This document shows positions 1,402 to 31,698 of a stretch of 32,000 bases of DNA, piece after piece. Below the pieces are notes generated by a model. The model saw nothing but the letters and a program-made list of their open reading frames with translations, made no database searches and was not told where the DNA came from. The position numbers were made by a program, and so were the translations under genes. The DNA comes from Candidatus Brocadia sp. (GTDB lineage Bacteria > Planctomycetota > Brocadiia > Brocadiales > Brocadiaceae), in contig CP091279.1 in the NCBI GenBank assembly GCA_021650915.1, forward strand, positions 3,420,001-3,452,000, given 5' to 3'. Positions within the stretch are counted from its first letter, which is position 1; every line of letters starts with the position of its first letter.

Positions 1402-1621
1402 TATAGTATTACTGTATAAAAACTTCTTTTTTTGTAAGTTTTTTCACAAACCCCTTTCAGAAGGTGCCGTTTTTTATGAGTGAAAGATTGCTTCGCTTCA
1501 CTCGCAATGACAACGTGCCGTGTGCCGTCAAAGTGCATGGTCGCTGTCATTGCGAGGGCCTTTTCCGAAGCAATCTCCCCGTTTTCATAAAGGAAATTTG
1601 GTTGCGGCTGCGCCGCGCTAT
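1402..1621 (+). repeat. Family A structured modular repeat, long variant, copy 1
   Basis: 5' arm is tatagtattactgtataaaaacttctttttttgtaagttttttcacaaaccc. The central long hairpin pairs gattgcttcg/ctcgcaatgaca with tgtcattgcgag/cgaagcaatc. 3' arm is aatttggttgcggctgcgccgcgctat. About 93% identical by hand alignment to 27290-27510. Confidence 0.85.
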
Positions 1622-1850
1622 AATATTACCGTATAAAAGCTTTCTTTTTTTGCAAGTTTTCTCGCAACCCTATTTATCCCTTGTCAGAAGGTACTGTTTA
1701 TTTATAAGAGAAGGATTGCTTCGCTTCACTCGCAATGACAACATGCCGTGTGCCATCAAAGTGCATGGTCGCTGTCATTGCGAGGGGCCTTTTTCGAAGC
1801 AATCTCCCCGCTTTCATAAAGGAAATTTGGTTGCGGCTGTGCTGCGCTAT
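1619..1850 (+). repeat. Family A repeat, long variant b, copy 2 (head-to-tail with copy 1)
   Basis: Starts tataatattaccgtataaaagctttctttttttgcaag, sharing the tat junction with the end of copy 1. Same hairpin core and the same 3' arm, ending ggttgcggctgtgctgcgctat. Confidence 0.8.
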
Positions 1851-2032
1851 GAGATAGTTATACCAGAATCTTTGTGTAATTCATAACCTATTTTAGCAGA
1901 AAGGGCTAAAACACTCAAAAAAACTTTGGCATGCCGGGAAATTTTTATCGATAACCACTTCTGCGCATCCCGTTAACAAAGAATTGTGGTAACAAGGTGG
2001 CCTTTTGAAAAATCCCGAAGGGATGTCATGAT

Positions 2033-2103
2033 TATAGAAAAAAACTTTTTTTGCAAGTTTTTTCGCAACCCTATTTATCCCTTACCAGAAGGCACTGTTT
2101 ATT
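2033..2103 (+). repeat. Family A repeat, copy 3, 5' part (split by a nested insertion)
   Basis: actttttttgcaagttttttcgcaaccctatttatcccttaccagaaggcactgtttatt matches copy 2 up to ctgtttatt and then breaks. The left boundary is approximate because the arm is degenerate. Confidence 0.7.
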
Positions 2104-2430
2104 AATAATGTAGAAAACCACGTCCTGTGGGCGTGGTCAGAGAACAACGGCTATGCCAGTAATCCCCTTCGATAAGTATGACGGAACTGGTTTTCGCCAT
2201 GCCGGTATTTTCCCAAAGAGATGTTCAATTTTGAGTATAAAACATTGAAAATACAAATAGGCTTACCGCTCATATCTCAAAGAAGCATTTTGGTTGCATG
2301 AAAACGAATCGCAGTTAGTTCTACACACCACGGGAATTACTTACAGTTTGCGTAATGAGTACAAATGGCAAACTTATCCCCTTTTAGGGGTTAACCCAAA
2401 GCCACCTGCTCCGCGGGTGGCTTCTTTACT
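2104..2430. mobile_element. Nested 327-bp insertion with subterminal hairpins (PATE-like non-autonomous element or small-RNA cassette; function unknown)
   Basis: Removing 2104-2430 rejoins ctgtttatt + tataagag, which equals the uninterrupted copy 2 sequence ctgtttatttataagag. There is at most 1 nt of junction ambiguity, so no target duplication. Hairpins are accacg-tcctgtggg-cgtggt (2117-2137) and gccacc-tgctccgcg-ggtggc (2401-2421). Each is followed by a T-run facing outward. Confidence 0.45.
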
Positions 2431-2577
2431 TATAAGAGAAGGATTGCTTCGCTTCACTCGCAATGACAACGTGCCGTGTGCCATCAAAGTGCATGGTCGC
2501 TGTCATTGCGAGGGCCTTTTCCGAAGCAATCTCCCCGTTTTCATAAAGGAAATTTGGTTGCGGCTGCGCTGGGCTAT
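2431..2577 (+). repeat. Family A repeat, copy 3, 3' part (hairpin core plus 3' arm)
   Basis: tataagagaaggattgcttcgcttcactcgcaatgacaac...gtcattgcgagggccttttccgaagcaatc...ggttgcggctgcgctgggctat. Confidence 0.8.
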
Positions 2578-2707: not shown

Positions 2708-3042
2708 ACCGCGCGGTAACAACGTTATTATGGTAATTTTTCAAAAAACGAACGTATCACACCTTTCTTTTTTGGTAACAGTTCACCCCCTGGTGTGAAA
2801 GAAACAAATTCATCGGGGCATTTTTAAGAGATAGGCTGCGTAGAGTAATTCGAAAGAATTAAGCAGCCAGATGAGTGTGGTCAGGGAGGTGTTGTAGAAG
2901 CAAGGATGGCATGGAGAGATGGTGTCGGTGGGCGTGGATAGATTGACGGAAGAAGTCAAGGGTGTTTCTACGCTGCATCCGGCAGGATTGCCAAACGGTA
3001 AGCAACCGCGCCCGAAGAATTTGTCCCTTGTCGCTGCGGGTA

Positions 3043-3154
3043 CACTAGTGTGCAGACATATTAATAACGAAACATATAAATGCTGTTTTGCGGCGCGATA
3101 TAGCTAAAATTGTCCACAATATATAATTTGTAATTAATATGTCTACACACTAGT
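3043..3154. repeat. 112-bp block bounded by 23-bp near-perfect inverted repeats (possible miniature element)
   Basis: cactagtgtgcagacatattaat (3043-3065) matches the reverse complement of attaatatgtctacacactagtg (3132-3154) at 22 of 23 positions. It lies at the 5' limit of the integrase remnant. Confidence 0.6.
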
Positions 3155-3721
3155 GACGAGGAAAAAAGACTTCTTAATAACTCTCCGCAATGGTTAAGAG
3201 AAATTGTCACCTTTGACCTGCATACCGGCCATCGTCAAGATGCGCTGCTTTCACGTCAATGGAGCCGGGTTGATTTGTTCCGCAAAATCATCATCATACA
3301 AGAAACGAAAAGCGGCAAACCCCGTACGGTTCCGTTGAATCAAATTGCCCTGGGTGTTTTAGCAGAAAAGGCTAAAGTAAGGCATATGAAAAGTGACCTT
3401 GTTTTCCTGAGTAGAGCATCAACCAAGATTGCCCGACATAATCTGAGAAGGGCTTTTAATACTGCTTTAGATAAGTCGGGAATTCAGGATTTCCATTTCC
3501 ACGACATACGGCATGCCTTTGCAACACGTTTAGCGCAACGGGGCGGTGATATTTACAAAGTCTCAAAACTGCTGGGACATGCTCATATTTCCATGAGCAC
3601 AAGGTATGCTCACCTTTGCCCGGAATCCTTGAGGGACGGCGTGAATATTTTAGAGAATTTGGGTCACGATTTGGTCATGGTAGAGGGAAACCGAATGTGT
3701 CAACTGCCTGAAAACCCTTGA
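3137..3721 (+). pseudogene. Tyrosine recombinase / phage-type integrase, C-terminal catalytic domain only, with 5' frameshift
   Basis: WLREIVTFDLHTGHRQDALLSRQWSRVDL (Arg box), HFHDIRHAFATRLAQ (HxxR), LLGHAHISMSTRYAH (catalytic Tyr). The N-terminal domain is missing. DEEKRLLNN lies in a different frame from SPQWLREIV (extra c near 3180). It ends 6 nt from the 3' end of tRNA-Val. Confidence 0.8.
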
Positions 3722-3727
3722 TTTGTA

Positions 3728-3803
3728 TGGTGGGCGCTAGTGGATTCGAACCACTGATCCCTTGCGTGTGAAGCAAGTGCTCTAGCCGCTGAGCCAAGCG
3801 CCC
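3728..3803 (-). tRNA. tRNA-Val (anticodon CAC), CCA encoded
   Basis: Reverse complement is GGGCGCTTGGCTCAGCGGCTAGAGCACTTGCTTCACACGCAAGGGATCAGTGGTTCGAATCCACTAGCGCCCACCA. It folds into a full cloverleaf: 7-bp acceptor, D stem GCTC/GAGC, anticodon stem CTTGC/GCAAG with loop TTCACAC, and T stem AGTGG/CCACT with loop TTCGAAT. Confidence 0.92.
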
Positions 3804-9543: not shown

Positions 9544-11270
9544 CTGTTTTTCAGTTCAAAAATAAAACCCATAAAAGATGAAAATTGAATATTTGATTTA
9601 TCGGTTGATTCAAAATCTACAATTAGTTGATATTTTTCTGAAAAAAGATTGAGAAAGTTAGTTAAATTAAAAAACCACACAGGATAACTTGCATCATATA
9701 TTTCAGGGGGGACTTTTTGCACGGCTATTCGATCCCCTCCCCTCTGCAAGAAAGGTGTTCTGTCTATAATGATATGTTCGAATCTATTTTTTATAATTGT
9801 CTCCAGCAAGGCATAAGGGTATGGAATGTATTGAAGCACACTTGACAAAAGTATTGCTTGCGGATTCTCTTTTATGACGCATTCCTTGAAATCAAAGTAA
9901 AATTTTAAATTATCATTTTCAAAAAACTTTTTCCCAACTTGCACAAAATGTTCCTGTTCCACAATACACCATTTTAATTCACTTACATGGCTTAAAAAAA
10001 GTTTATTTTGAAAATAAGATGTGCCTAAAGATCCACCGAAATCTAATAAAGTGAGCCTATTGTTATTCCGCGATGCAATCCATAGCAATCCCGCTAATAA
10101 AGGCCATGAATATTGGACTTTATCAAACAAGACAGAATCCCGTTCACCAGATGCTTCACCGTTTTTGACTTTTAAAAGAGCATCCGTAACCTTTTTGAGA
10201 ATGATTTCCGAATCATATCCGGCAGAAGCCTTTTTGGCTGCTTCCCAATCAGGATAATTTCCAAAAAAACCATATTTTGCTGCTTTATTTTTGTAAATTC
10301 TAAAAATAACAGGTGGAGTAATTTCGCGTATGATTTGGGCAATCGTAGTTTTTTTACATATCTTTGACACTTTACCAAAAATCTTACCGGACAAAGAAAC
10401 AGAAGAGAATGTGTTTGTTCTAAAATAGTCTTCAAATATTTTTAGGGCAGATTCGTTTTCTACTATAGGAATGTGTTCGATCCGAATAGGTTTCTTAGCG
10501 ATTGTCGTGTTAAAAATATCCGTTGCAGAGCAATGCGTTCCACTTCCGTCATTTCCATTATTATGGATCAACGACATGCCAGGATATAAGGTAAGCTTTT
10601 CTTTTAAAAATAATGAAGCGTGCCATCGGATTGCCCAGGAATGATTCTTTCCTTTAGCCTGATCTTTTAACATTCTTGTGTACGGATATGTGCCGTTCAG
10701 ATCAAACTTTCTCAGAAGATTATTTTTCTTCAATTCATATAAAAGCTTACTTCCATCTGTTTCAAACAAATTCCAGCCTCTTTTCCAGGTAGCCCATCCC
10801 CAACAGTCAGCACCTCTCAAGAAAAACGTTTCTGGAAGCAGGGTTTTGAGTGGATAAATATAACCATGAATACTTGCAACCCTTTCCTCATCTTCATAAA
10901 ATTCCAAGGCTTCATTCATGAATCTCAAAAAGTATGGAGAACTGATCATATCATCTTCAAGCACAATGATTCTGCCATAACGATTAATTATTTCTGTAAC
11001 ACCTGTAATAATGGAATTCCCAAGACCGAGGTTTTGTTCTCTTTCTACGATGTTGACGCTCTTAAAGCCTGAGATTGTTTTGATATACTTCCGTACCGCC
11101 AATACTTTTTCTTTATCGGCTTCAGACTTTGGACCGTCCGAAAACACAAAAAGTTCGCTAAATTCTGCCAATTCATTTTTATTCAATGACTCAACAGTCT
11201 GTCGTAAATGCCAAGGGCGATTATAAACAAATAAGGCGATTGGCGCTAATTCCATCTTTATCCCCCACAC
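9540..11270 (-). CDS. Fusion protein: N-terminal GT-A glycosyltransferase plus C-terminal methyltransferase-like domain (my recollection: LIC12133/TIGR04325-like)
   Basis: The N-terminal half aligns at about 70% with 14995-15891 (MELAPIALFVYNR..., IIVLEDDM, GADCWGWATWKRGW). The C-terminal half aligns with 14160-15014 (YGFFGNYPDWEAA, LLDFGGSLGTSYFQN, IIIDRTPF). The likely start is ATG 11255 (MELAPI), preceded by GGGGGA. Confidence 0.75.
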   Translation of the reverse strand: MWGIKMELAPIALFVYNRPWHLRQTVESLNKNELAEFSELFVFSDGPKSEADKEKVLAVRKYIKTISGFKSVNIVEREQNLGLGNSIITGVTEIINRYGRIIVLEDDMISSPYFLRFMNEALEFYEDEERVASIHGYIYPLKTLLPETFFLRGADCWGWATWKRGWNLFETDGSKLLYELKKNNLLRKFDLNGTYPYTRMLKDQAKGKNHSWAIRWHASLFLKEKLTLYPGMSLIHNNGNDGSGTHCSATDIFNTTIAKKPIRIEHIPIVENESALKIFEDYFRTNTFSSVSLSGKIFGKVSKICKKTTIAQIIREITPPVIFRIYKNKAAKYGFFGNYPDWEAAKKASAGYDSEIILKKVTDALLKVKNGEASGERDSVLFDKVQYSWPLLAGLLWIASRNNNRLTLLDFGGSLGTSYFQNKLFLSHVSELKWCIVEQEHFVQVGKKFFENDNLKFYFDFKECVIKENPQAILLSSVLQYIPYPYALLETIIKNRFEHIIIDRTPFLQRGGDRIAVQKVPPEIYDASYPVWFFNLTNFLNLFSEKYQLIVDFESTDKSNIQFSSFMGFIFELKNR

Positions 11271-14159: not shown

Positions 14160-15014
14160 TTACTTCCTTCTATTTCTGAATATAAAACCTTTATCATTTG
14201 CAATAGTATCCTCTAGTTTTATTTGACCAGCCAGTGCATCAAAATCCACAACAAGTTCATAATCGTTTTTTAAAAAATCAAGAAATTTCATTTCACTTAA
14301 GAACCAGACTGGATAACTTGCCTCATAAATAGCAGGCGATACTTTTTGAACTGTAAGCCGATCTTTCCCTTTTGCTAAGAAAGGAGTCCTGTCAACAATT
14401 ATGTAAGTAAAATTTAGATTCAATACATCCTGTAATAAAGCGTAGGGCCTTTCAAGATAAGGAAGAACACTGGATAGAACAATTGTCTCTGGATGCTGAT
14501 CCTTAATACAATCGTCCATATTTTTATAGAATTTCAGATGCTCATCTTCAAAATAAAGCTTCCCGCATTCAACAAATCTTGCTTGTTCAATAATATTCCA
14601 TTGCAACTCTTGGAGATTCTCAAGGAACTTCCTGTTCTGAAAATAGGTACTACCCAGAGATCCTCCATAGTCTATAAGATTAAGAGAGTTATTGTTTTGT
14701 GAAGCAATCCACATAAGACCAGCCAATACTGGCCAGGAGTATTCTATCTTGTCAAAAAGTACTGAATCCCTCTCATAGACTGCATCTCCATTTTTAACTT
14801 TAAGCAAGGCATCTTTGACTTTTTCAAGTATTAATTCAGAACCATACCCTGATGAATCCTTCAGAGCATCTTCCCACGTCGGATATTCGCCGAAAAAGCC
14901 GTATTGCGATGCAACCCTCCTGTAAGACCTTACAAATATAGGTGGAATCAAATCTTTTAAAATACTTTTCATTAGCTCGCCCTTGCAGTCTGTTTTATTT
15001 AAAGACCTTAACAA
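14160..15014 (-). CDS. Stand-alone methyltransferase-like protein homologous to the C-terminal half of 9540-11270
   Basis: YGFFGEYPTWEDA, LIDYGGSLGSTYFQN, IIVDRTPFLAKGKDRLTVQKV. The likely start is ATG 14972 (MKSILKDLIPP), 22 nt after the upstream TAA and in a different frame. Confidence 0.7.
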   Translation of the reverse strand: MLRSLNKTDCKGELMKSILKDLIPPIFVRSYRRVASQYGFFGEYPTWEDALKDSSGYGSELILEKVKDALLKVKNGDAVYERDSVLFDKIEYSWPVLAGLMWIASQNNNSLNLIDYGGSLGSTYFQNRKFLENLQELQWNIIEQARFVECGKLYFEDEHLKFYKNMDDCIKDQHPETIVLSSVLPYLERPYALLQDVLNLNFTYIIVDRTPFLAKGKDRLTVQKVSPAIYEASYPVWFLSEMKFLDFLKNDYELVVDFDALAGQIKLEDTIANDKGFIFRNRRK

Positions 15015-15891
15015 GAATGCCCTTCAGACGACCCATAATATCAGGTCCTATGGACTTAAAATATTTTTCTACTTCTCTTAAAGCATGACAGTTCTCTTCA
15101 ATCCGAATATTCCCTGTTCTAACAGACGACACGGAAACATATGTGTCGTATACACCTATCATCCCACAGTGAGTCCCGCTGCCATCGGTTCCTATATTGC
15201 GTATTAACGATCTTCCCGGATACAAGGTCAGCCTGTCTTTTACAAAAGCCGATGCATACCACCTGATTGCCCAGGAATCATTTTTCCCATTAATCTGATC
15301 TTTAAGCATTTCTGAATAAGGGTATGCCCCCTTAATATCAAACTTCTTTTGCAGTCCAGACCTTTTTATTTCATCCAAAAGTTTCCGTCCATCAGCCTCG
15401 AATAAATCCCATCCCCGTTTCCATGTAGCCCATCCCCAACAGTCCGCACCTCTCAAAAAGAACGTTTCAGGAAGCTCGATTTTTACAGGATAAATGTACC
15501 CATGTATACTTATGACTTTTTCTTTATCTCTATAAAATTCCAGAGACTCATTCATAAATTTTAAAAAAAAAGTCGACGTTACCATATCATCTTCCAATAC
15601 AATTATTCTCCCATATTTGCCTACAACTTCTGTAACTCCTTTAATAATAGACTGGGCCAATCCAAAATTAAGTTCTCTTTCTATAATTGTCACGTTTTTA
15701 AAGCCAGAAATTGTTTTAGCATAATTTCTCACCATTAATACATTTTCTCTATCGGCTTCGGATTTTGGACCATCTGAAAATATGATAAGTTCACTTTCTG
15801 AAGCAAGATAATTTTTTTTCAATGCCTCAATGGTTTGTTGTGTATGCCACAGGCGATTGTAAACAAACAATGATATTGGAGCTAATTCCAC
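14995..15891 (-). CDS. Stand-alone GT-A glycosyltransferase homologous to the N-terminal half of 9540-11270
   Basis: MELAPISLFVYNRLWHTQQTIEAL, IIFSDGPKSEAD, IIVLEDDM, GADCWGWATWKRGW, NIGTDGSGTHC. Confidence 0.7.
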   Translation of the reverse strand: MELAPISLFVYNRLWHTQQTIEALKKNYLASESELIIFSDGPKSEADRENVLMVRNYAKTISGFKNVTIIERELNFGLAQSIIKGVTEVVGKYGRIIVLEDDMVTSTFFLKFMNESLEFYRDKEKVISIHGYIYPVKIELPETFFLRGADCWGWATWKRGWDLFEADGRKLLDEIKRSGLQKKFDIKGAYPYSEMLKDQINGKNDSWAIRWYASAFVKDRLTLYPGRSLIRNIGTDGSGTHCGMIGVYDTYVSVSSVRTGNIRIEENCHALREVEKYFKSIGPDIMGRLKGILVKVFK

Positions 15892-15967
15892 TTTTCCTTC
15901 CTGTTACACTTAGGTAAGTTCCATCGGTCATAGCGAGAATTTATCTCTGGAATTATTTTTTGCCGCT

Positions 15968-20641: not shown

Positions 20642-20752
20642 CTATTGCAGCAAGCCGCAATCAAGTCCCCAGAATAAAGGGGGATTCAGGGGGTTGTAAA
20701 AAACTTACGAAAAAAAGAAAGATTTTACACGGTAATGCTATACTTGAACAAA
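20642..20752 (-). repeat. Family A repeat, short variant, inverted orientation
   Basis: The reverse complement reads tatagcattaccgtgtaaaatctttctttttttcgtaagttttttacaaccccctgaatccccctttattctggggacttgattgcggcttgctgcaatag. It has the same arms as the other copies and a short G/C hairpin in place of the long hairpin. Confidence 0.7.
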
Positions 20753-21348: not shown

Positions 21349-22447
21349 TTAATTGTTAAAAATGTCCAGCACCTCCTGATCACTCAATGCCCTCCGGTAA
21401 AGCCGAACGTCGTCAAGGATGCCGTTAAAATACCCTGCATTCACCCGTGAATGGCCTATCCTCATGTCCGTGTACGCCGTCAACGGCACTACCGTGTTCC
21501 CCGCCGGATGGGTTTGGGTATTCACCAGTTGACCATTTACGTATAACTTTTGTTCTCCCGTTGTCTTGTTATATGTACCGGTAACATGGTACCAGCTTCC
21601 CACAGAATTACCCAAATTCCCCTGGGCCATTTGCATGATTCTTGTGCCGCTTCCATCCTGTGTCACCACGACAAACTGAAGCGTATTGGGATTGCCTGAT
21701 GGAAATCTCAGTTCAAATCCCTCACGGAGTTGTGCATTGGAACTGTTCCTGAATCCGCTGAAGATGGCGTCATTCCGCGTCGTATCATTGGCATTCTTAT
21801 AGCACCACGCCGTAACGGAAATCTCATCGTTGTTGATCCTGGGGACGGTTACATGATCATCTACCCCATCAAATCTCAGTCCATTTGCAATCGGCGCCCC
21901 CGTCCATATCGCTCCGCCATTGATGGCACCATGATTGCCATTACCCGAAGAATCTCCTGCAATCGTCCCCGATCCTTCATCAAGGGCGTAGTGCACCTGC
22001 AGGTCTCCGGTGAAGGCATGGTATAAGGTGCGGATTTCCCAGTCACTCAAGGGCCGGTTGTACAGACGGACGTCATCAATAACGCCGTTGAAATAACCAT
22101 TATTCACCCGTGAATGTCCTATCCTCATGTCAGGGTAATAGATCATGGGTACGACAGTATTTCCCACCGGATGGGTCTGAGTATGAACGAGTTCTCCATT
22201 TACATACAACGTTTGTTGCCCCGTTGTCTTGTTATAGATGCCAACGGCATGGTACCAGCTTCCTATCGAGGTAAGGAGATTCCTTCGGGTAGTCCGTGTC
22301 GTCCTGTTCCCGCTCCTGTCTTGTGTCACGAGGACAAACTCAAGGGTATCCGGGGCACCTGCAGGAAACCGCAATTCAAACCCCTCCCGAAGTTGCAGAT
22401 TTGAGTTGCTTCTGAATCCGCTAAAAATGGCAACATTCCGTGTTGTA
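21349..22447 (-). pseudogene. Tandem LamG / concanavalin-A-like lectin (Laminin_G_3-type) domain protein, 5'-truncated by IS630
   Basis: There are two ~190-aa modules about 70% identical to each other (AIFSGFR..LREGFELRFP..GSWYH..YNKTTG..LYVNG..DMRIGHSRVN.GYFNG..DDVRLY). ORF residues 1-31 are translated from the IS630 terminal repeat. Confidence 0.8.
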
Positions 22448-23541
22448 TAGATTGTTGCATTAATTAAGTTAATAATTAGTTTCATTGCTAGATAAAATGT
22501 TGTAAAATAGGAGCATGAAAGATGACGGAAGGAAGCTGTCAAGGGAGGTATTGGAGTCTTATCGAATCCGGGCGATCACGCTCAGGGATAAGATGCATTA
22601 TTCCGTTAAAGAAATAGGCGAGATATTTGGCATTAAGTATGAAAGTGTCTCAAGGTGGTTCTCTCAATACCGTCGTGGTGGTATAGAGGCGCTTAAGGAA
22701 CGCAAAGCAAAGGGCAAGGCGCGAATTGTAAATGCGGATGATTTAAGATGGTTGCAAAGTGTTTTGCAGAATGTCGCGACAAAATATGGTTTTTCGACTC
22801 CGCTGTGGACCGGAACATATGTTAGAATTCTTTTCCGGCGAGAAGGAAAAGTGAATTTGGATCGCAGCACAATATGGCGATATCTGGTTCGGTTGGGTTT
22901 GAGTTTTCAAAAGCCGGAAAAACGTTATTCACAGCAAGACATGGATTTGGTAAAGACATGGATTAGCAAGGAGTGGCCTGAAATTCAGAAGTGGGCTCAG
23001 AAAAACCGGGCTATTATCTATTTTGAGGATGAGTCGGGCGTTTCCCTTGCGCCTGTTATTGGAAAAACATGGGCTCCGATAGGAGAAACCCCCGTTGTGC
23101 GTGTGACCGGGAAACGGGGCGGCGTTTTGGCCATGTCGGCGATTTCGCCATCTGGCAGGATGTGTTTCCGTCTGGAGAAACGAAAAGTTAACGCCCAGGT
23201 TCTTATGGAATTTCTGAATCAAATTAGCGTGCAACATCCGCGGCGTAAGGTGGCGGTGATCATGGACCAAGCGCCTTGCCATGTTGCCAAAAGAATTAAA
23301 GCATTGAATGAGGGGTCATCGAAGCTACGCGTATTCCATCTGCCGCCGTATTCACCGGATCTGAATCCGGATGAAAAAGTTTGGCGGCATATGAAGCATG
23401 TCACGCTAAAGAATCACCAGGCACAGAACAAAAAACAACTTGGACGTTTAGTCATTGGAGCGCTTAGAAAAATACAGAAGAACCCTGAATTGACCAAGAA
23501 ATTCTTTGAGAATTATTTAACATAATCAATGCAACGAACTA
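22448..23541 (+). mobile_element. IS630-family insertion sequence with TA target duplication
   Basis: The imperfect ~30-bp terminal inverted repeats are tagattgttgcattaattaagtta on the left and, as the reverse complement of the right end, tagttcgttgcattgattatgtta. TA lies at 22446-22447 and at 23542-23543. Confidence 0.85.
22515..23525 (+). CDS. IS630-family DDE transposase (apparently intact)
   Basis: N-terminal HTH (YSVKEIGEIFGIKYESVSRWF), IYFEDESG, VIMDQAPCH, PPYSPDLNPDEKVW. Confidence 0.9.
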   Translation: MKDDGRKLSREVLESYRIRAITLRDKMHYSVKEIGEIFGIKYESVSRWFSQYRRGGIEALKERKAKGKARIVNADDLRWLQSVLQNVATKYGFSTPLWTGTYVRILFRREGKVNLDRSTIWRYLVRLGLSFQKPEKRYSQQDMDLVKTWISKEWPEIQKWAQKNRAIIYFEDESGVSLAPVIGKTWAPIGETPVVRVTGKRGGVLAMSAISPSGRMCFRLEKRKVNAQVLMEFLNQISVQHPRRKVAVIMDQAPCHVAKRIKALNEGSSKLRVFHLPPYSPDLNPDEKVWRHMKHVTLKNHQAQNKKQLGRLVIGALRKIQKNPELTKKFFENYLT

Positions 23542-24287: not shown

Positions 24288-24462
24288 GCAGGTTTTTGGC
24301 TTTACAAACCACAGAGGCCACGGGGTCAAAATCTATTCGACAATTCCGGGTAGAGTAGGGAACTGGCTATCTATAGTTTAGGTTGGCCTATCTGTTTCTG
24401 CCCCTTTCGTCTGGCAGTGCCTCAGTAGCCTCACCATGCTATTTCGCCAGTCCTCCCTCATC

Positions 24463-24495
24463 AAACCGTGCTTGCGGTTTTCCCGCACACGGCTT
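24463..24495 (-). ncRNA. Group II intron domain V
   Basis: The minus strand reads AAGCCGUGUGCGG-GAAAA-CCGCAAGCACGGUUU. It has the AGC triad, the two-nucleotide bulge and a GNRA-like loop. Confidence 0.85.
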
Positions 24496-24523
24496 TCCGA
24501 TGCCCTTCACCATAAGGCATGCG

Positions 24524-25840
24524 CTATCTCCATACCGCTGTGGTCGGCACTTTGTAAAGACCATATCTCTCATATAACATGCTGTTTGTGTATCGCTTAA
24601 GCCCTGTCTTCCTGTCTCTGATTTTATGACGTCTGTACAGGTGTATCCGAAGCCGGAATTGAGCGTGTTCTCTTACTTGCTTGAGGACTCTGCTGCAATT
24701 GCGATAATGGAAGTATCCTGTCCATCCTATCAGTGCCGTATTCACCTCTTTGACTATCGCTTCAAACGGTAGAGGGGACCTGTTCCTGCTGGTAAGTGCC
24801 GTAATGTGGTCTTTTATCTTCTTGAGAGATTTCTTCGACGGCTGAACATGGGGATAACTCTTCCCCGTGCGCCAATTCTTCCTCTTTTGAAGTTCAAACC
24901 CAAGAAAGGTAAATCCCTCTTTCATGGCGTCTACTACACGGCTCTTTGCCTCGTTTAACGTCAGTCCCAGTTTGTCCAGCACCCGCTTTGTTATCGCCAT
25001 TGGCTGTTCAGTTCCTTGCCTGCACAGTACGACAAAGTCATCGGCAAAGCGTACTAATCTGGCTCCGAGTTTCTTCTCCAGTCGATGTCTCTCCCATATC
25101 CTGTCCAGGAGGTGCAGGTAGAGATTGGCTAGTAACGGTGAGATTACTCCTCCTTGAGGTGTGCCTTTCCGGTTCCCTTTACCTCCGCCGATGTTCCTTT
25201 GTTTTCCGTCTCTGCCTTTTTCTATGACCGGAGCCTTGAGCCACGTCTTTATCAGGTGCAGTATCTCACCGTCACTGATGCGCTCTGCTACCACAGCCAT
25301 AAGCTTGGCATGGGGGATGGTGTCAAAGTATTTGGACAGGTCGGCGTCTATGATTTCGGTATATCCCTTGTTGAGGGTATATGCTACGTCATCTACGGCA
25401 TCGTGGGCAGATTTCTTCGGCCTGAACCCGTATGAACATTCGCAGAAATCGGCTTCAAAAATGGGTTCTATGACCAGTTTTACGGCCATCTGCGCTACCC
25501 TGTCACGGATGGTGGGAATGCCTAACGGGCGTTCCGTTCCGTCCGTCTTGGGTATCATTACTCGTTTTACAGGGCTTGCTTGATAGGTCTTGCTCCTGAG
25601 TGCTTCTTGCAGTTCCGCCAGAAAGGCGGATACCCCTTCTCTTTCCTCGATGGCCTCGAAGGTTACGCCGTCTATCCCGGCGCTCCCTTTGTTGGCACGG
25701 ACAAGGGTGTAAGCATGACTGAGGATGTCTGCCCGGAATACCTTGTCATAGAGGGCGTAGAAGCGGTAGGTTGGTTCTTGCTTGGCCTTTCGGTATAGCT
25801 TCCTCTGTAGTATCCTGATCTTTTCCGGGGTTGTTAGCAT
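24524..25840 (-). CDS. Group II intron reverse transcriptase/maturase (no endonuclease domain)
   Basis: RT motifs are RPLGIPTIRDRVAQ, IDADLSKYFDTIPH, GTPQGGVISPLLANLYL and VRFADDFVVL. The maturase X domain is LIGWTGYFHY. The protein ends without an HNH region. Confidence 0.92.
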   Translation of the reverse strand: MLTTPEKIRILQRKLYRKAKQEPTYRFYALYDKVFRADILSHAYTLVRANKGSAGIDGVTFEAIEEREGVSAFLAELQEALRSKTYQASPVKRVMIPKTDGTERPLGIPTIRDRVAQMAVKLVIEPIFEADFCECSYGFRPKKSAHDAVDDVAYTLNKGYTEIIDADLSKYFDTIPHAKLMAVVAERISDGEILHLIKTWLKAPVIEKGRDGKQRNIGGGKGNRKGTPQGGVISPLLANLYLHLLDRIWERHRLEKKLGARLVRFADDFVVLCRQGTEQPMAITKRVLDKLGLTLNEAKSRVVDAMKEGFTFLGFELQKRKNWRTGKSYPHVQPSKKSLKKIKDHITALTSRNRSPLPFEAIVKEVNTALIGWTGYFHYRNCSRVLKQVREHAQFRLRIHLYRRHKIRDRKTGLKRYTNSMLYERYGLYKVPTTAVWR

Positions 25841-26353
25841 TTCTGCAATCTCCCTTTTCCTCTACTCGTCGGTTGCATGAACAAAGCAGGGTTCCTTTCC
25901 TCGAACAGGGTTTTGTTGTCCCTTGTCCTCAAACGGTATCATGAACCCCTCCGACTCCCTATACAGCCCGCTGTGATTTCGTTTCCTTATACAGAGCGGT
26001 TTATGCCCCTCAAACATTACTGCATAGGGTCTCCAGCACTGGTCTGTTTATCTTCCACTGCATGCCGCCCCTGCTACCCCGGAAGATATTACAGACTCCT
26101 TCCGTTGCCTGAGTCTGCAATCTTCGGCCTTCCCCACGTGTCCACGGGGTCGGCATCTTCAATTTGTATTGACGAGGCTACTTGTAGGTTCGCTTGCGCT
26201 GCGGCCTGCGGTTTTGCCAATTGGGAACTTACGACCCCTGATTGCTCAGACGCCGCTCCCTTGAACTACCGGGGTGAACGGATAATTCCCCGGACGGGAC
26301 TTTAACCCGTAAGAATAAACAAATGTTACTGCGTACGGACACCATACTTAATT

Positions 26354-26810
26354 TTAGAGATTCTTATTTTTCTTTTGAAGCGCCTTTGGGCCGGGTTTCT
26401 GCTTATTGAGCATTCTCCTAAGGACATCTTCAAGTCTGCCTATAAAACTGTTAGTGCCCAGAGGTCTCCCGGTTCGCTCGTGACATCGAAACTTTTCGAC
26501 TTCTTCATCTGATATGCCCCTGAAAAGAAAATCACTCCACTCGCCAAACATTTCAAACAACGGAGCTACATGCACAGGTCGATCATCTCGCACAGCAATA
26601 TGTGCAGATGCACTGCTCCATCGGTACTCCTGTGGTTTCTTAACCAAATTTGCCCTTACAGGATTCAGTTCAACATAGCGTGCGGCTACGTACAGATGGG
26701 TTTTGTCCATGGGAAAAGAGGCAAAATGTCCTTGCCATAGGTGTCCTCTCCAGCCTTCCCGGAAGTTAACGCGACGCGTGTGGCATCGATGCGCTTCGCC
26801 AATTGCCCGA
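26354..26810 (-). pseudogene. REP-associated/IS200-like Y1 (HUH) transposase, RAYT type (COG1943-like), C-terminal half only
   Basis: SRAIGEAHRCHTRRVNFREGWRGHLWQGHFASFPMD...AARYVELNPVRANLVKKPQEYRWSSASAH. The HUH-containing N-terminal half is missing. Homology stops exactly where the IS inverted repeat starts (26811). The first ~9 residues of ORF 26354-26839 are IS-derived. Confidence 0.75.
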
Positions 26811-26964
26811 CTAACCCGACATTCGCAATTCGCGCCCAAAAAAGTTTATTTTTGGGCAAGAGTCGCCTGGAAAGCCTTGAAATTCAAGGGGTGAATTTTC
26901 AAAACGGCTTGTAGTGCCGACCTACCCTCTTGACGCATGCAGGAGGAAGTGCGAAAATGCTCGC

Positions 26965-28963
26965 ATGTTTCTCCGGGAAAAGACATGAACGAAAGATGGG
27001 AAAACCCACCGGTATTGGAGTGTGGTAGAGAACCGCCGGGTTACCGGAAGAAGGGTGGTGCAGCGGCAGGTTCTCTCTTTGGGAGAACTCAATGACAATC
27101 AACGGGCTGGGTGGATTCGGACGATAGAGGCGATGTCGGGTAAAGAACCCAAGCCAAGACAACTGGCATTGTTTCCGGATGACCGGGAAGCCATGCCGAT
27201 ACCGGATGGTGAGACCGTTCGGGTGAAGTTGGACAAAATAGAGCTGCGCCATCCACGGGAGTGGGGAGCGAGCTGGTTGGGATTGTATGTATAGTATTAC
27301 TGTATAAAAACTTCTTTTTTCTGTGAGTTTTTTCACAAACCCCTTTCAGGAGGTACCGTTTTTTATGAGTGAAAGATTGCTTCGCTTCACTCGCAATGAC
27401 AACATGCAGTGTACCATCAAAGTGCATGGCCGGTGTCATTGCGAGGGCCTTTTCCGAAGCAATCTCCCCGCTTTCATAAAGGAAATTTGGTTGTGGCTGT
27501 GCCGCGCTATGGAATATGCTGGAACTGGACACATTCTGGAGGATGCGTCTGCCGTCAAGCCGGAAGGGGACAAGCTGGTTGAATATACTGAAGGCGCTTG
27601 TCTGTTACCGGTTGACCGATCCGGGAAGCGAATTTCGTTTTCACCGTGAGTGGTACGTGCGGAGCGCAATAGGTGATCTGCTGGGAGAGGATTATTCCTG
27701 GCGCAGAAGGACAAGGCGTATCGTTGTTTGGATTTGTTGCTTGAGCATCGGGACGAGTTGTTTGCCTATTTAAAGGAGAAGTGGGGAAAACTCTTTGGGG
27801 CGAAGTACGATGTGCTGCTGTATGATTTGACGAGTACGTATTTTGAGAGTGAACCGCCACCGGCTGGATCGGGGAGTAAGAAGCGGTTTGGATATAGCCG
27901 GGACAAACGTTCGGATTGCGTGCAGGTGGTAGTGGCGTTGGTGTTGACGCCGGAAGGATTTCCCGTAGCCTACGAAGTGTATCCGGGCAATACCAGAGAC
28001 ACCGCAACGCTGGAGGAATTTCTGGATCGGATTGAAAAGCAGTATGGGAAATTCCGGCGCACCTGGCTTATGGATCGCGGTATTCCAACGGAGGAGATGT
28101 TGGAAAAGATGCGTGAGCGCGGGATTGATTATTTGGTTGGGACTCCGAAGGGGCATTTGACGAGAGTAGAAAAACCGCTACTCGAACAAACCTGGATGCG
28201 GGCGAGGGAGAGCGTCCGCGTGAAAGTTCTTCGGCAGGAATCGGAGTTTTACGTTTACGTGGAAAGCCATGACCGGGTGTCTAAGGAGCGTGCCATGCGT
28301 AGGCGCAGACTCAGACGTTTGTGGATGGGCCTGCGCGAACTTCGCAATCGAAAAGCCCTCACGCGCGATGACCTGCTCATGCATATTGGCGCGTTAAAGA
28401 AAGAAGCCGGACGAGACTACAGACTGGTCACGATCTCCATTCCCAAACCGCAGGAACCGGTCAATGAGAATACGTTCCGGTTCAGTTTGGATCGGGAACG
28501 CCTGAGGCAGGCGTATCGGCGCGAGGGGCGTTATTTGCTTCGTTCCAACATGCAGGCCACCGCGCCAGAAACCGTCTGGGAAAATTATTTGCTGTTGACA
28601 CGGATAGAACAGGCATTTAAGGACTTGAAGGGGTCTCTTTCCGTCCGCCCCCTATGGCATCAATTGGAACGGAGAATTGAAGCCCATATCTTTGTTTCCT
28701 TTTTGGCTTTTTGTCTCCACACGACACTGCGCAATCTTGCGCGGGGGAGGGCCGGAGGGCTGACGTCTGAAGCGATTTTGGAAAAACTGTCGGGCATTCA
28801 AATGATAGACGTTCATTTACCGACCACGGATGGCCGTCATATTGTCATGAGCCGTTATACCCAGCCGGAGAAGGACGTTTTACTCCTTTTGGCGCAGTTG
28901 GGATTAACGCTTCCTGAACAACCGCCGCCCAAGGTTTACGCATCCGGACAGGTCGGCCTGTAG
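26965..28963 (+). pseudogene. IS1634/IS4-type DDE transposase with nonsense codon, repeat insertion and frameshift
   Basis: MFLREKT-TGA(26986)-TKDGKTHRYWSVVENRRVTGRRVVQRQVLSLGELND. The gene is interrupted at 27290-27510. It changes frame near 27690-27700 (..LLGEDYS to LAQKDKAYRCLDLLLEH..). Then come YDVLLYDLTSTYFE, WLMDRGI and LLTRIEQAFKDLK. Confidence 0.85.
27290..27510 (+). repeat. Family A repeat, long variant, inserted inside the IS1634-like transposase gene
   Basis: tatagtattactgtataaaaac...gattgcttcgcttcactcgcaatgaca...tgtcattgcgag...cgaagcaatc...ggttgtggctgtgccgcgctat. Excising exactly these 221 bp restores one reading frame, WLGLY-G-NMLELDTFW. Confidence 0.85.
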
Positions 28964-28976
28964 TGCCGACCTTTTT
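28951..28976 (+). terminator. Intrinsic terminator at the transposase stop codon
   Basis: ggtcggc-ctgtagt-gccgacc followed by ttttt. The TAG stop lies in the loop. Confidence 0.6.
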
Positions 28977-29572
28977 GCATGACCCCTTGATTTTCCTGGC
29001 TCAGAGGGTTGCATACCCCTCGAATTGCGAAAGTCGGGTTAGGGAATTTCTTTCCAAGACATAAGTCCTCCCCCGGTCATATGGATTACCCCTTTTCCCT
29101 TCGTGATGTATGCTCAAACGCATTATCCAGAGATGTTTTCACCAAATCGCTTGCATCATCTCCACCAAGGACACTGTCAGCACTTCACTGAGAAAGGGCA
29201 GTTGGCACGAACTAACACGCCATACTCATACACCCCAAAAGGTCGTCTGTATCTCGTAACTCCATCATACCCCTCACGGGAATACGCTATCCTTCTCCGC
29301 ATACGGATTACTCCGTTGTATACGCATAGGTACAAACTTCTCTACGAGGATTTAGTCTCGCAGAGGTGATATTTTCAACCACTCAGGTATTCCATACTTC
29401 AAGGCACGTCTTTTCTCACGTATCCAAGACGAACCTCAAGATTCACCGTCTGCATTCCCGAAACACCTTCTCCACCTTTGACAAGTCCTTGTGCCAATCG
29501 TGTACCAAATCGGTATCCGCCGATCGTCATTCCTCGGATCGGTCTTGATTACATAGGGTTTCCGTTCAAACA

Positions 29573-31435
29573 CTACGTAAGACCAGGGGGTGGTGATTGT
29601 TTCTGGGGTGTGACCTTGCCGTCAATAATTTTTCTCAGCTCTTCCCCCTCAACGACCTCTTTTTCCAGAAGAAGTTTTGCAAGGGTTTCTAAGCGGTCTT
29701 TATTTTCCGTAAGAATGCCTTTTACCCTGCTATACGTGTCGAATACAATCTTCTTGACCTCATTATCAATGTCTTTTGATACATCTTCGCTCAACTCGCG
29801 GCTCGTGCGATATCCGAGATCCAGAAATTGCGGTCTCCTGCCATTTTGAAAAGTCATGGGCCCAAGCTTTTCGCTCATGCCATATTCCCGAACCATGCTC
29901 ATAGCGATGTCCGTTGCCCGTTCCAGATCATTCTGCGCCCCGGTAGAGATCTCCTGAAATTTAATTTCTTCGGCCACACGACCACCGAGAAGCACCGCAA
30001 GCCGGTCTAATAATTCTGATCGCGTCAGTAAATACCGGTCCTCCGTAGGTAATTGCAGGGTATATCCAAGGGCGGAAATTCCGCGTGGAATGATTGAAAT
30101 TCTGTGGACTTTGTCAGCGCCTGGAACTGATTCTGCCACCAGTGCATGCCCCGATTCATGATAGGCAATAATCTCCTGTTCCTTCCGGCTCATAACCTTT
30201 TTTTTCTTCTCGAGTCCGGCAATCACCCGATTGATAGCTTCTTCAAGACTGTCCATTCCCACGGCATCTTTGCCTACGCGTGCGGCAAGCAGCGCAGCTT
30301 CATTAACTACATTCGCCAGGTCTGCGCCGACAAACCCAGGAGTCCGTGCGGCAACAATCTTTATATCGACGTCTTTTCCCAGTTTTATATTTTTGCAGTG
30401 CACCCTGAGTATCTCTTCGCGCCCTTTAATATCAGGTCTGTCGACCAGGATATGTCTGTCAAATCGTCCGGGCCTCAATAGTGCCGGATCCAGCACTTCC
30501 GGCCTGTTCGTCGCTGCCATGAGGATAACGCCTTTTCTTGTGTCAAATCCGTCCATTTCGACAAGAAGCTGATTCAGGGTGTTTTCTCGTTCTTCATGAC
30601 CACCCGATACCGGCGCTGCTGCCCTTACCTTTCCCAGGGCATCAATTTCATCAATAAAGATAATGCAAGGCGCCTTTTCCTGTGCCTGGGCAAACAGATC
30701 CCTTACCCGGGCGGCTCCTACCCCCACAAACATCTCGACAAACCCGGATCCGCTTATTGAAAAAAACGGCACCTTTGCTTCCCCGGCTACCGCCTTGGCA
30801 AGCAGGGTCTTGCCCGTGCCCGTGGGGCCGACCAGCAATACCCCTTTGGGAATCTTTCCTCCTAACCGCTGATATTTCTGCGGGTTTTGCAAATAATCGA
30901 TGACCTCTTTCAATTCTTCCTTGGCCTCATCGACACCAGCAACATCATTAAAGGTAACGCCGGTATCCTTGTCGATATACAGATTTGCCCGGCTCTTCCC
31001 AATGGCCATGAGTCCCGCCCCTGTCGCACCTCGTCTGACGCGCGCCATCAGAATGAAAAAGATAATCATGGGGAGAAACCAGAGTAAAAACAGGCTTTGA
31101 CTCCATCCGCCATTGGTGGTTGCAGAAAATCTTACCTTGTGTGCTATGAGTTCCTTAATCAGTTCCTGGTCTTCGATCTTTACCGTTGTTATCGTCTTTT
31201 TTATCTTCTGCCCTTCTTCTGGCTTTAAAATACCTTTGATTGTCGTGGGGCTCATAATCACTTCTTCCAGCCTGTTTTGCTGTATCAGAGCCTTAAAATC
31301 ACTGTAAGGAATCCTTTCAGTCGAGGAGAATGCGGCATATGCATTACGGTGCATGGCGAGAACCGTCAGAAATACGATGAATAGGAAAGAGATGCGCGCG
31401 AGGTGTCTTCTCTTCATTTTATTAATTTCTTTCAA
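29573..31435 (-). CDS. ftsH: ATP-dependent zinc metalloprotease FtsH, paralog 2 (complete)
   Basis: N-terminal TM segments, Walker A GPTGTGKT, Walker [33 protein letters not shown] and HESGHAL. The protein is 620 aa. Confidence 0.95.
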
Positions 31436-31596: not shown

Positions 31597-31698
31597 TATA
31601 GTATTACTGTATAAAATCTTTCTTTTTTTGCAATTTTTTTGACAACCCCCTTCACCCCCTTTGTTAAGGGGGAATTGGTTGCGGCTGTGCTGCGTTAT
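31597..31698 (+). repeat. Family A repeat, short variant
   Basis: tatagtattactgtataaaatctttctttttttgcaatttttttgacaaccc, then the tight hairpin ccccctt-tgtt-aaggggg, then aattggttgcggctgtgctgcgttat. It lies 161 nt upstream of the ftsH paralog 2 start. Confidence 0.75.

Follow-up and report, generated by a model that had tools for sequence, protein, structure and literature searches.

INTRODUCTION

Short mobile repeats of several kinds have been described in bacteria, and they provide the background for a repeat family of Candidatus Brocadia, one copy of which (copy 5 below) lies within an insertion sequence (IS) of the IS1634 family. The DNA analysed, called the window throughout, is a stretch of 32,000 nucleotides from a Candidatus Brocadia genome (GenBank assembly GCA_021650915.1, contig CP091279.1, positions 3,420,001 to 3,452,000); loci outside it are denoted by L and a number, and the two ends of the element are called the L-end and the R-end. 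The bacterial miniature inverted-repeat transposable elements (MITEs) derived from IS630/Tc1-mariner transposons include Correia/NEMIS in Neisseria and RUP in Streptococcus pneumoniae. The Brocadia family resembles them in being small (100–250 bp), non-coding, present in high copy number, intergenic or gene-disrupting and flanked by TA. However, those elements have terminal inverted repeats of 20–30 bp and symmetric targets, whereas in the Brocadia family the ends are unrelated to each other and the target motif, of 6–8 nt, is one-sided.

The IS200/IS605-derived palindrome-associated transposable elements (PATEs) and the repetitive extragenic palindromes (REPs) with their doublets (REPINs), which are mobilised by HUH transposases of the Y1 type, share with the Brocadia family the lack of inverted repeats, the presence of hairpins, a short motif on one flank, precise integration and a presumed trans-acting enzyme. 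They differ in needing subterminal hairpins at both ends (or a REP doublet) and a target of 4–5 nt located 5' of the left end. The Brocadia family has a hairpin at the R-end only, 2 nt from the tip, with a longer motif beside that end, and the resident genes for REP-associated tyrosine transposases (RAYTs) use other palindromes.

Further resemblances are to rolling-circle elements, namely IS91/ISCR of bacteria and the non-autonomous Helitrons of eukaryotes. They comprise the lack of inverted repeats, a conserved 5' end without structure, a GC hairpin just within the 3' terminus, insertion at a fixed di- or tetranucleotide, a conserved flank at one end, head-to-tail arrays, termini that are the only common parts around heterogeneous interiors, and one-ended copies. 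The resemblance is anatomical only. No Y2/Rep-helicase partner was present in the loci searched, and we know of no described miniature IS91 derivatives of 100–250 bp. Constant terminal modules, variable internal modules and a strong potential for secondary structure are also found in BOX (boxA-boxB(n)-boxC) of S. pneumoniae and in the bacterial interspersed mosaic elements (BIMEs) of Escherichia coli. In contrast to the Brocadia family, BOX has terminal modules that pair with one another, BIMEs are built from REPs, and neither is defined by a precise filled/empty TA junction or a one-sided motif. The Brocadia family is MITE-like, yet it fits neither the DDE MITEs nor the REP and IS200/IS605 derivatives cleanly.

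RESULTS

A copy of the repeat interrupts an IS1634-family transposase gene

The original prediction, made from the letters of the window, was that a structured repeat of 221 bp interrupts an IS1634-like transposase gene and that the repeat family is or was mobile. The transposase frame was said to end at 27288 and to be picked up from 27513 in another frame, and this is the case, the protein reading ...ELRHPREWGASWLGLY before the repeat and (N)MLELDTFWRMRLPSSRKGTSW after it. Uninterrupted copies of the IS were sought among 80 loci encoding relatives of the IS1634-family transposase (Pfam domain DDE_Tnp_1). More than 25 such copies, from at least six genera-level lineages, pass through the site without the block and encode a continuous protein. 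Six close intact copies have the DNA sequence GGATTGTATGTAT/GGGATATGCTGG at the site (here and below a slash within a sequence marks the junction) and more than 20 further copies also align across it without interruption. The intact copies read ...LGLYVWNMLELD in the protein and TTGTATGTAT/GGAATATG in the DNA, with TTGTATGTAT/GG(A/G)ATATG as a variant form. Intact Brocadia transposases have 593 aa and the residues ...LYVWNML at the insertion site, and homologues from Brocadia, Jettenia and more distant organisms, with 593 aa or other lengths, read LY(V/L)W(N/D)(M/L)L. The reconstructed window transposase is 98% identical to the intact 593-aa homologues of Candidatus Brocadia.

Comparison with the intact copies also corrects the size of the insert and its junctions. 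Deletion of 221 bp had been proposed to restore the frame through a glycine codon. This deletion gives ...LYGNML and a protein of 592 aa, whereas the native codons are GTA TGG (Val-Trp). The true increment is 218 bp, corresponding to 27290–27507 or equivalently to any register up to 27293–27510, as the 3-nt TAT leaves the register ambiguous. With the insert the site is TTGTATG-TAT-[215 bp]-TAT-GGAATATG, and without it TTGTATG-TAT-GGAATATG. A 218-bp element with a 4-bp TATG duplication, which had been kept as an alternative, does not agree with the intact copies, as both TATG sequences are native to the IS (TATGTATGG). Read from its TA, the IS1634 site is TA/TGGAAT.

The window copy of the IS is a pseudogene with three lesions, namely the 218-bp insert, a premature TGA at 26986–26988 where intact copies have CGA, and a 1-bp deletion at about 27698 (TTCC-TGG against TTCCCTGG). 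The latter two were overlooked in the original prediction and, given their presence, restoration of the frame is on its own a weak argument for insertion. The pseudogene state is the sole point in favour of the notion that the 218 bp are ancestral IS sequence or an assembly artefact. Ancestral sequence is at odds with the uninterrupted copies, and an artefact with locus L137 (WBZY01004471.1, 2709–4639), an independent metagenome contig which carries an IS1634 copy with the identical insert and the same private variants as window 26811–29041; the probability that no insertion took place is negligible. The flanking DNA in L137 is unrelated to the window, and its copy has neither the TGA nor the 1-bp deletion but has internal deletions of its own. 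Since the L137 copy carries the insert without the other two lesions, the insert is real and predates them, and since the flanks differ, the composite of IS and repeat exists at two loci at least. The repeat apparently hitch-hiked as IS1634 was copied, presumably with intact IS copies acting in trans. As direct evidence that the repeat family is or was mobile, the interruption is strongly supported by the intact paralogues without the block and by six further filled/empty comparisons.

Integration occurs at TA beside a one-sided motif

Target preferences were derived from 52 non-redundant copies, found with a motif that included the left TA. On the right, 49–50 of the 52 have an intact TA, and the flanking sequence is usually TAT. 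This corrects the earlier statement that there is no consistent flanking direct repeat, as nearly all copies are bracketed by TA, usually TAT, and the empty site has one. The integration rule across the 52 copies is (C-n-Y)TA/KGRAWT, and the target of the family can be written as TATGGAAT. In the right flank, position +1 is T or G in 51/52, +2 is G in 46/52 (p = 2e-26), +3 is a purine, +4 is A in 32/52 and +6 is T in 34/52. The left flank is weakly constrained, with C at -3 in 25/52 and almost never G at -1. Given that the right flank is strongly and the left flank weakly conserved, integration is orientation-specific and sequence-directed. The native IS1634 site fits the preferred right flank.

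Seven comparisons of filled and empty sites are in agreement. They are the IS1634 site, copy 2 of the window against L155, and five sites within other repeat families, these last being obtainable because the elements often land in such families. The orthologous region of a related strain (L155) contains copy 1 and lacks copy 2, the empty site there being GCTGCGC-TA-TGAAATAG. The five additional empty sites, in paralogues of the repeat families, show a single dinucleotide with the motif already in place; the dinucleotide is mostly TA, with CA in some diverged paralogues including 3/3 for one case. Head-to-tail tandems with one common TA(T) occur in the window and in L090, L102, L115, L128, L130 and L147. 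Such arrays arise because a further copy can enter at the TA between the R-end and KGRAWT, a junction that is still a good target.

Three events would account equally well for a TA at both junctions and once in the empty site: duplication of 2 bp, crossover at a core of 2 bp, or cleavage inside or next to the TA. The pattern arises without duplication if the element carries one TA or inserts within it, and a second TA belonging to the element, with such cleavage, would correspond to an HUH enzyme. The first of these corresponds to an ordinary DDE MITE, in which an IS630/Tc1-mariner-type (or IS5-subgroup) transposase inserts at TA and the TA(T) is a true target-site duplication. Nearly all copies have TA at both junctions, and the empty sites close enough to read have it once. 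An IS630-family IS with TA on each side and both tips TA/TAG is present in the window, and the L tip of the element is likewise TA/TAG. However, the element has no terminal inverted repeats, the inverted repeat of the IS630 element (TAGATTGTTGCATT) is unlike either element end, and the few IS630 copies in related loci are unlinked to the ends, and one of them lies inserted in an element. Symmetric or palindromic target preferences are the rule for the TA-duplicating DDE enzymes (IS630 with CTAG, Tc1/mariner), whereas that of the family is strongly one-sided. No autonomous DDE partner with matching ends was found in ~1.7 Mb of loci, a search that was not genome-wide. An ordinary DDE MITE is therefore unlikely. 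The claim in the original prediction that the repeat is not a DDE MITE holds as far as the missing inverted repeats and the one-sided target lean that way, while the TA pattern is equally what a 2-bp duplication would give.

The IS630-family element occupies 22448–23541 (+), contains DDE_3 and HTH domains in an intact open reading frame (ORF) of 336 aa, has the inverted repeats TAGATTGTTGCATT and TAGTTCGTTGCATT, and is inserted in a LamG-domain gene (ORF 21349–22542, -).

The second possibility is that a circular intermediate is integrated by site-specific recombination, the enzyme being a serine transposase like that of IS607, a DEDD recombinase like that of IS110, or another recombinase, with the TA as common crossover core and an abutted R-TA-L junction recombining with a target TA. 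The identical 2-nt core at both junctions and at the R-L tandem junctions is compatible with it without being specific to it, the lack of inverted repeats, the precise integration and the head-to-tail arrays would also suit it, and the target CnY-TA-TGRAWT is loosely like the element's own R-L junction CGC-TA-TAGTAT. Against this, IS607-type elements are described as having very low target specificity, IS110-type targeting would constrain both flanks, and the flank shows no guide-like match to the motif lying 5' of the R hairpin (observed 3.44, null 3.44). Nor can a palindromic TA core alone set a fixed orientation, and no recombinase gene was seen with these ends in related loci. A circular intermediate is accordingly an improbable route, and a recombining R-TA-L junction is equally so.

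The element consists of two constant ends and a variable interior

Members in the window and in 84 metagenome loci follow a common plan of a conserved, unstructured L-end of ~45 nt, a mosaic interior that varies, and a ~25-nt R-end in which a small hairpin precedes the terminal TA, the total length being 93–390 bp. The consensus of the L-end is TATAGTATTACYGTRTAAAAACTTCTTTTTTTGYAAGTTTTTT and that of the R-end is TTGGTTGCGGC-NNN-GCYGCGC-TA. There are no terminal inverted repeats, the inverted repeats within the element being all internal, and the L tip (TAGTATTAC...) is dissimilar to the reverse-complemented R tip (GCGCRGC...). Copies shortened to the L-end only or the R-end only occur.

The long imperfect hairpin described in the original prediction is borne out by folding (z = -4.7 for DNA and -5.1 for RNA). 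This 135-nt hairpin is one interior type and is dispensable cargo, missing from short members, which carry a CCCCC...GGGGG hairpin instead. Other interiors consist of small palindromes, of duplicated hairpin units, or of a MITE of the terminal-inverted-repeat type that sits within the T-run of the L-end. Since the interiors vary among members, the two ends are the constant and presumably the recognised parts.

The original prediction had assigned the element to the REP/BIME (RAYT) and IS200/IS605 derivatives. Mobilisation of such an element by the COG1943 (RAYT/Y1) genes of the genome is suggested by the hairpin-rich body and the lack of inverted repeats, by a truncated Y1-like gene which adjoins the IS (26354–26811) and by Y1 genes in related loci. 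This assignment is disfavoured, and the probability that it is right is low. The RAYT gene in L113 is flanked by GGCAGGCAATGCCTGCCCTAC-type palindromes and a second Y1 gene by CACCATACTTAATT inverted repeats, and no Y1 gene in the loci examined carries the L- or R-ends. In addition, the L-end has no hairpin, the short members lack the long hairpin, and there is no conserved GTAG-type tetranucleotide at the ends.

Known classes were also considered individually. For an IS200/IS605-derived PATE, a Y1 element with the same ends was not found, the Y1 genes of the window, L077 and L113 having other flanks. In a REP/REPIN-RAYT system palindromic units of 20–40 nt with a conserved tetranucleotide, often paired as inverted doublets, surround a single-copy RAYT gene; the constant parts of the element are instead its non-palindromic ends, and these do not flank the RAYT gene of L113. 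The two hairpins of a PATE were not found, a hairpin being present at the R-end and no conserved one at the L-end. PATEs insert beside a one-sided motif without duplication; a one-sided motif is present here as TA/KGRAWT, it lies beside the hairpin end and is longer than 4–5 nt, and insertion without duplication is one of the readings of the TA pattern. The family has the anatomy of rolling-circle HUH elements, and this as anatomy only: inverted repeats are lacking, a subterminal hairpin lies at the 3' end, and a short target of fixed sequence adjoins one end.

The Y1-like gene of the window (-) encodes the C-terminal two-thirds of a COG1943/IS200-like Y1 protein, its HUH-motif N-terminus having been cut off by IS1634; full but frameshifted homologues are found in L113 and L077. 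The result is a three-level nest, in which the Y1 gene is split by IS1634 and IS1634 is split by the 218-bp repeat, with an intron behind the Y1 gene. In L113, at 1500–2130, there is a classical RAYT-type gene flanked by GGCAGGCAATGCCTGCC-CTAC palindromes, and related GTAGGGGCAGGTTTnAAACCTGCCCCTAC units are scattered over many loci. Since the L113 gene has palindromes of its own, a genuine REP/RAYT system exists in Brocadia and is separate from the present element.

Copies in the window and distribution of the family

The window contains seven full or partial copies of the family where none is expected by chance, and the two end motifs have five occurrences each against an expectation of zero. 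Their coordinates, together with the parts of copy 5 and the interrupted IS, are given in Table 1. The identity of ~93% between copy 5 and copy 1 given in the original prediction was measured as 94%. Copy 7 was absent from the list in that prediction.

Table 1. Positions of the interrupted insertion sequence, the parts of copy 5 and the other copies of the repeat family in the window.
Feature	Position	Strand	Remarks
IS1634-family insertion sequence	26812–29041	+	2012 bp without insert; boundaries from alignment to 20+ copies
Copy 5, including both flanking TAT	27290–27510	+	net insertion 218 bp
Left junction TA(T)	27290–27292	.	read from sequence; single TAT in empty site
Right junction TA(T)	27508–27510	.	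followed by native target flank GGAATAT (27511–27517)
Conserved L-end of copy 5, TATAGTATTACTGTATAAAAACTTCTTTTTTCTGTGAGTTTTTTC	27290–27334	+	AT-rich; no stable conserved hairpin; not an inverted copy of the R-end
Long imperfect hairpin core of copy 5	27355–27490	+	cargo module of 'long' subfamily
Outer arms of hairpin core	27374–27384 / 27455–27465	+	
Inner arms of hairpin core	27390–27401 / 27434–27445	+	
Conserved R-end of copy 5, TTGGTTGTGGCTGTGCCGCGC-TA	27487–27509	+	5-bp hairpin near tip
R-end hairpin, GTGGC-TGT-GCCGC	27493–27505	+	2 nt from terminal TA
Copy 1, long subfamily	1402–1621	+	head-to-tail tandem with copy 2; common TAT 1619–1621
Copy 2, long subfamily	1619–1850	+	87% identity to copy 1; missing at orthologous site of related strain (L155)
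Copy 3, partial	2033–2108	+	L-part only; TATTACYGTRT segment deleted internally
Copy 4, partial	2425–2577	+	hairpin core and R-end; different left module
Copy 7, short subfamily	20643–20742	-	100 bp
Copy 6, short subfamily	31597–31698	+	L-end, CCCCC...GGGGG hairpin and R-end; ftsH upstream region

Outside the window, one metagenome scan found the 20-mer of the L tip, TATAGTATTACYGTRTAAAA, as an exact match in at least 84 stretches, and the sources listed for most of these were anammox reactors, groundwater and Lake Tanganyika. Relatives were present in GTDB genomes of B. pituitae, B. carolinensis, B. sapporoensis and other Brocadiaceae, and one copy has been kept at the orthologous purE-lipA spacer in five assemblies. 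Collections of plasmids and viruses gave no relatives save one chance 20-mer match in a giant-virus contig. The element encodes no protein, yet its hairpin core has been translated and annotated as 'hypothetical protein', with 52 such protein clusters, each of them from Brocadia. Rfam 15 gave no match at the gathering threshold in the window and only sub-threshold noise (E<=1) over copies 1–4, and promoter and terminator scans of the element gave no consensus. A literature search returned no description of Brocadia MITEs and a search with sequence strings returned only primers. No description of the family was thus found in Rfam, the plasmid and virus collections or the literature searched, and in kind it belongs with the bacterial non-autonomous mobile repeats.

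Other mobile and repeated sequences

Several other small elements are intermingled with the family. A second miniature family, with true inverted repeats (GGTAACA..TTTAGTTTTTTGAAAAA ... TTTTTCAAAAAACTAAA..TGTTACC), is present at 2590–2770 of the window and in L085, L103 and L155 (two sites). Members of it are repeatedly found within the T-run of an L-end and, conversely, it is targeted by the family studied here (L081). A palindromic module of ~26 nt, CCCCATTTTCATGAGGACAAG(TTTT), is nested in many L-ends as a tiny mobile unit; in L096 (-), at about 2313–2700, it splits a small GIY-YIG (COG2827-like) ORF. The inverted repeat AATCCCGAAGGGATGTCATGATTATAG ... CTATAATCATGGCATCCCTTCGGGATT (window 2010–2037 and 2571–2600) brackets the partial copies 3 and 4. 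In L103, L136, L140 and L155 this motif is found adjoining R- or L-ends, and two of the filled/empty pairs have it as their target family.

Directly after the stop codon of the Y1-like gene lies a group II intron at 24350–26303 (-), recognised by Rfam matches to D1–D4 and domain V/VI, with a reverse transcriptase/maturase ORF at 24524–25840. The uninterrupted site GGTGTCC/CCGGAATT is found in L113 at about 2860–2880. A truncated ORF of the phage integrase family at 3275–3721 adjoins a tRNA gene (3731–3803, -) and is preceded at 3040–3160 by a 25-nt perfect-looking inverted repeat, cactagtgtgcagacatattaat...attaatatgtctacacactagtg; together these are probably the remnant of an integrated element. 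Four collinear direct repeats (D5, D6, D8, D10) with 70–76% identity and an offset of ~4636 bp connect 9610–11259 with 14239–15895. The sequence similarity would indicate a diverged tandem duplication of a gene block within the region of low GC (35–39%) at 4–20 kb. Positions 539–869 are 73–74% identical to 30628–30958, 30,089 bp away, and since the latter lie within ftsH (29573–31435, -), the start of the window contains another FtsH-like AAA gene, which has diverged.

DISCUSSION

The above results establish the insertion and the target, and leave the agent of mobilisation to be considered. The best overall explanation, held with slightly less than even confidence, is a non-autonomous, non-coding family of mobile elements of the Brocadiales. 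That the family is mobile, is mobilised in trans and integrates at TA in a sequence-directed way is very probable. That the trans-acting enzyme is of the HUH type is put forward somewhat more tentatively than the overall explanation. It is favoured on the lack of inverted repeats, the one-sided target, the unstructured conserved 5' end, the 3' subterminal hairpin, the head-to-tail arrays, the termini as only common parts and the one-ended copies. The HUH/Y1 style of mechanism named in the original prediction thus stays the best guess, on grounds other than those first given, as its argument from the lack of a target duplication is not established.

On this explanation a trans-acting enzyme would recognise the two dissimilar ends and the one-sided target motif. 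The element itself was inserted precisely at a TA of IS1634, adding 218 bp and leaving TA(T) at both junctions, in the orientation that places the R-end beside the native TGGAAT. The enzyme would most likely be a single-strand nuclease/transposase of the HUH type, acting either by Y1 'peel-and-paste' or by Y2 rolling-circle transposition (IS91/Helitron-like), with the R-end hairpin as the presumed recognition structure and cleavage at or within the TA.

Folding suggests that the substrate may be single-stranded. The long core folds better on the + strand (-73.6 against -64.4 kcal/mol). The R-end hairpin pairs on the + strand in 30–36 of 37 distinct copies per position; its central position on the - strand pairs in 16/37 (G.T 20, G-C 11, A-T 3) and is mismatched in most copies. 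The strand difference of the R hairpin and the better folding of the core on the + strand hint at a single-stranded, strand-specific substrate. The spectrum of pairs in the R hairpin is suggestive only, because any transition from an ancestral G.T gives a Watson-Crick pair.

Several observations weigh against an HUH enzyme or against a strand-specific substrate. The G.T-rich R hairpin may be merely an inherited imperfect palindrome. Covariation cannot validate any stem, only one of 53 predicted pairs having a double change, and is uninformative because the family is too uniform. The orientation of copies relative to local GC skew is 15:25 (p = 0.15), which is no bias, local skew being a poor proxy for the direction of replication. 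IS200/IS605 elements carry hairpins at both ends, but no conserved hairpin is present at the L-end. In IS608-type elements the target is located 5' of the left end; here, read on the strand that gives the best pairing of the R hairpin, the conserved target is found 3' of the element. The TA at each junction agrees exactly with the product expected of a DDE transposase that duplicates TA (IS630/Tc1-mariner), and an IS630-family element lies 4 kb off. Finally, no autonomous element or candidate enzyme bracketed by L- and R-ends was present in ~1.7 Mb of related DNA, the search not being genome-wide, and for this reason trans-mobilisation and the class of enzyme can only be inferred. In the related loci L- and R-ends more than 450 bp apart proved to be unrelated neighbours and not the ends of an autonomous copy, and inverted L..L or R..R pairs gave nothing coherent. 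Clustering of the ORFs from ~1 Mb gave IS1634 as the sole multi-copy ORF.

The same features could also belong to a system that has not been described in bacteria, for which a lower likelihood must be allowed than for the HUH mechanism above. The family may, with this rather low probability, be a miniature, trans-mobilised form of a transposition system which lacks terminal inverted repeats and is specific for strand or orientation. Such a system would integrate at TA beside an asymmetric motif of 6–8 nt and might be, for example, Helitron/IS91-like rolling-circle or a new class of HUH enzyme or recombinase. In this same reading its termini would have stayed identical over 20 nt across Brocadiales lineages, and the family would act both as a landing pad and as a carrier for other tiny mobile modules.

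Whichever enzyme is responsible, the family inactivates genes and other mobile elements, and it has been translated into dozens of spurious 'hypothetical proteins' in the annotation of Brocadia genomes. The copy in IS1634 illustrates a passenger effect in which the repeat can spread inside an IS that is itself mobilised in trans, the composite in L137 being at a second locus. Within this one lineage there is a nested traffic of at least four kinds of miniature element. For transposon biology the family provides a clean case of precise, orientation-specific integration at TA without inverted repeats, outside the standard definitions of MITEs, REPs and PATEs, and its mobilisation mechanism is possibly unusual. 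Were the partner enzyme to prove new or of the rolling-circle type, the family would be clearly more interesting. Anammox bacteria have no pure culture and no genetic tools, and once the enzyme is found, a small element whose ends and target motif are defined could be the starting point for an integration tool.

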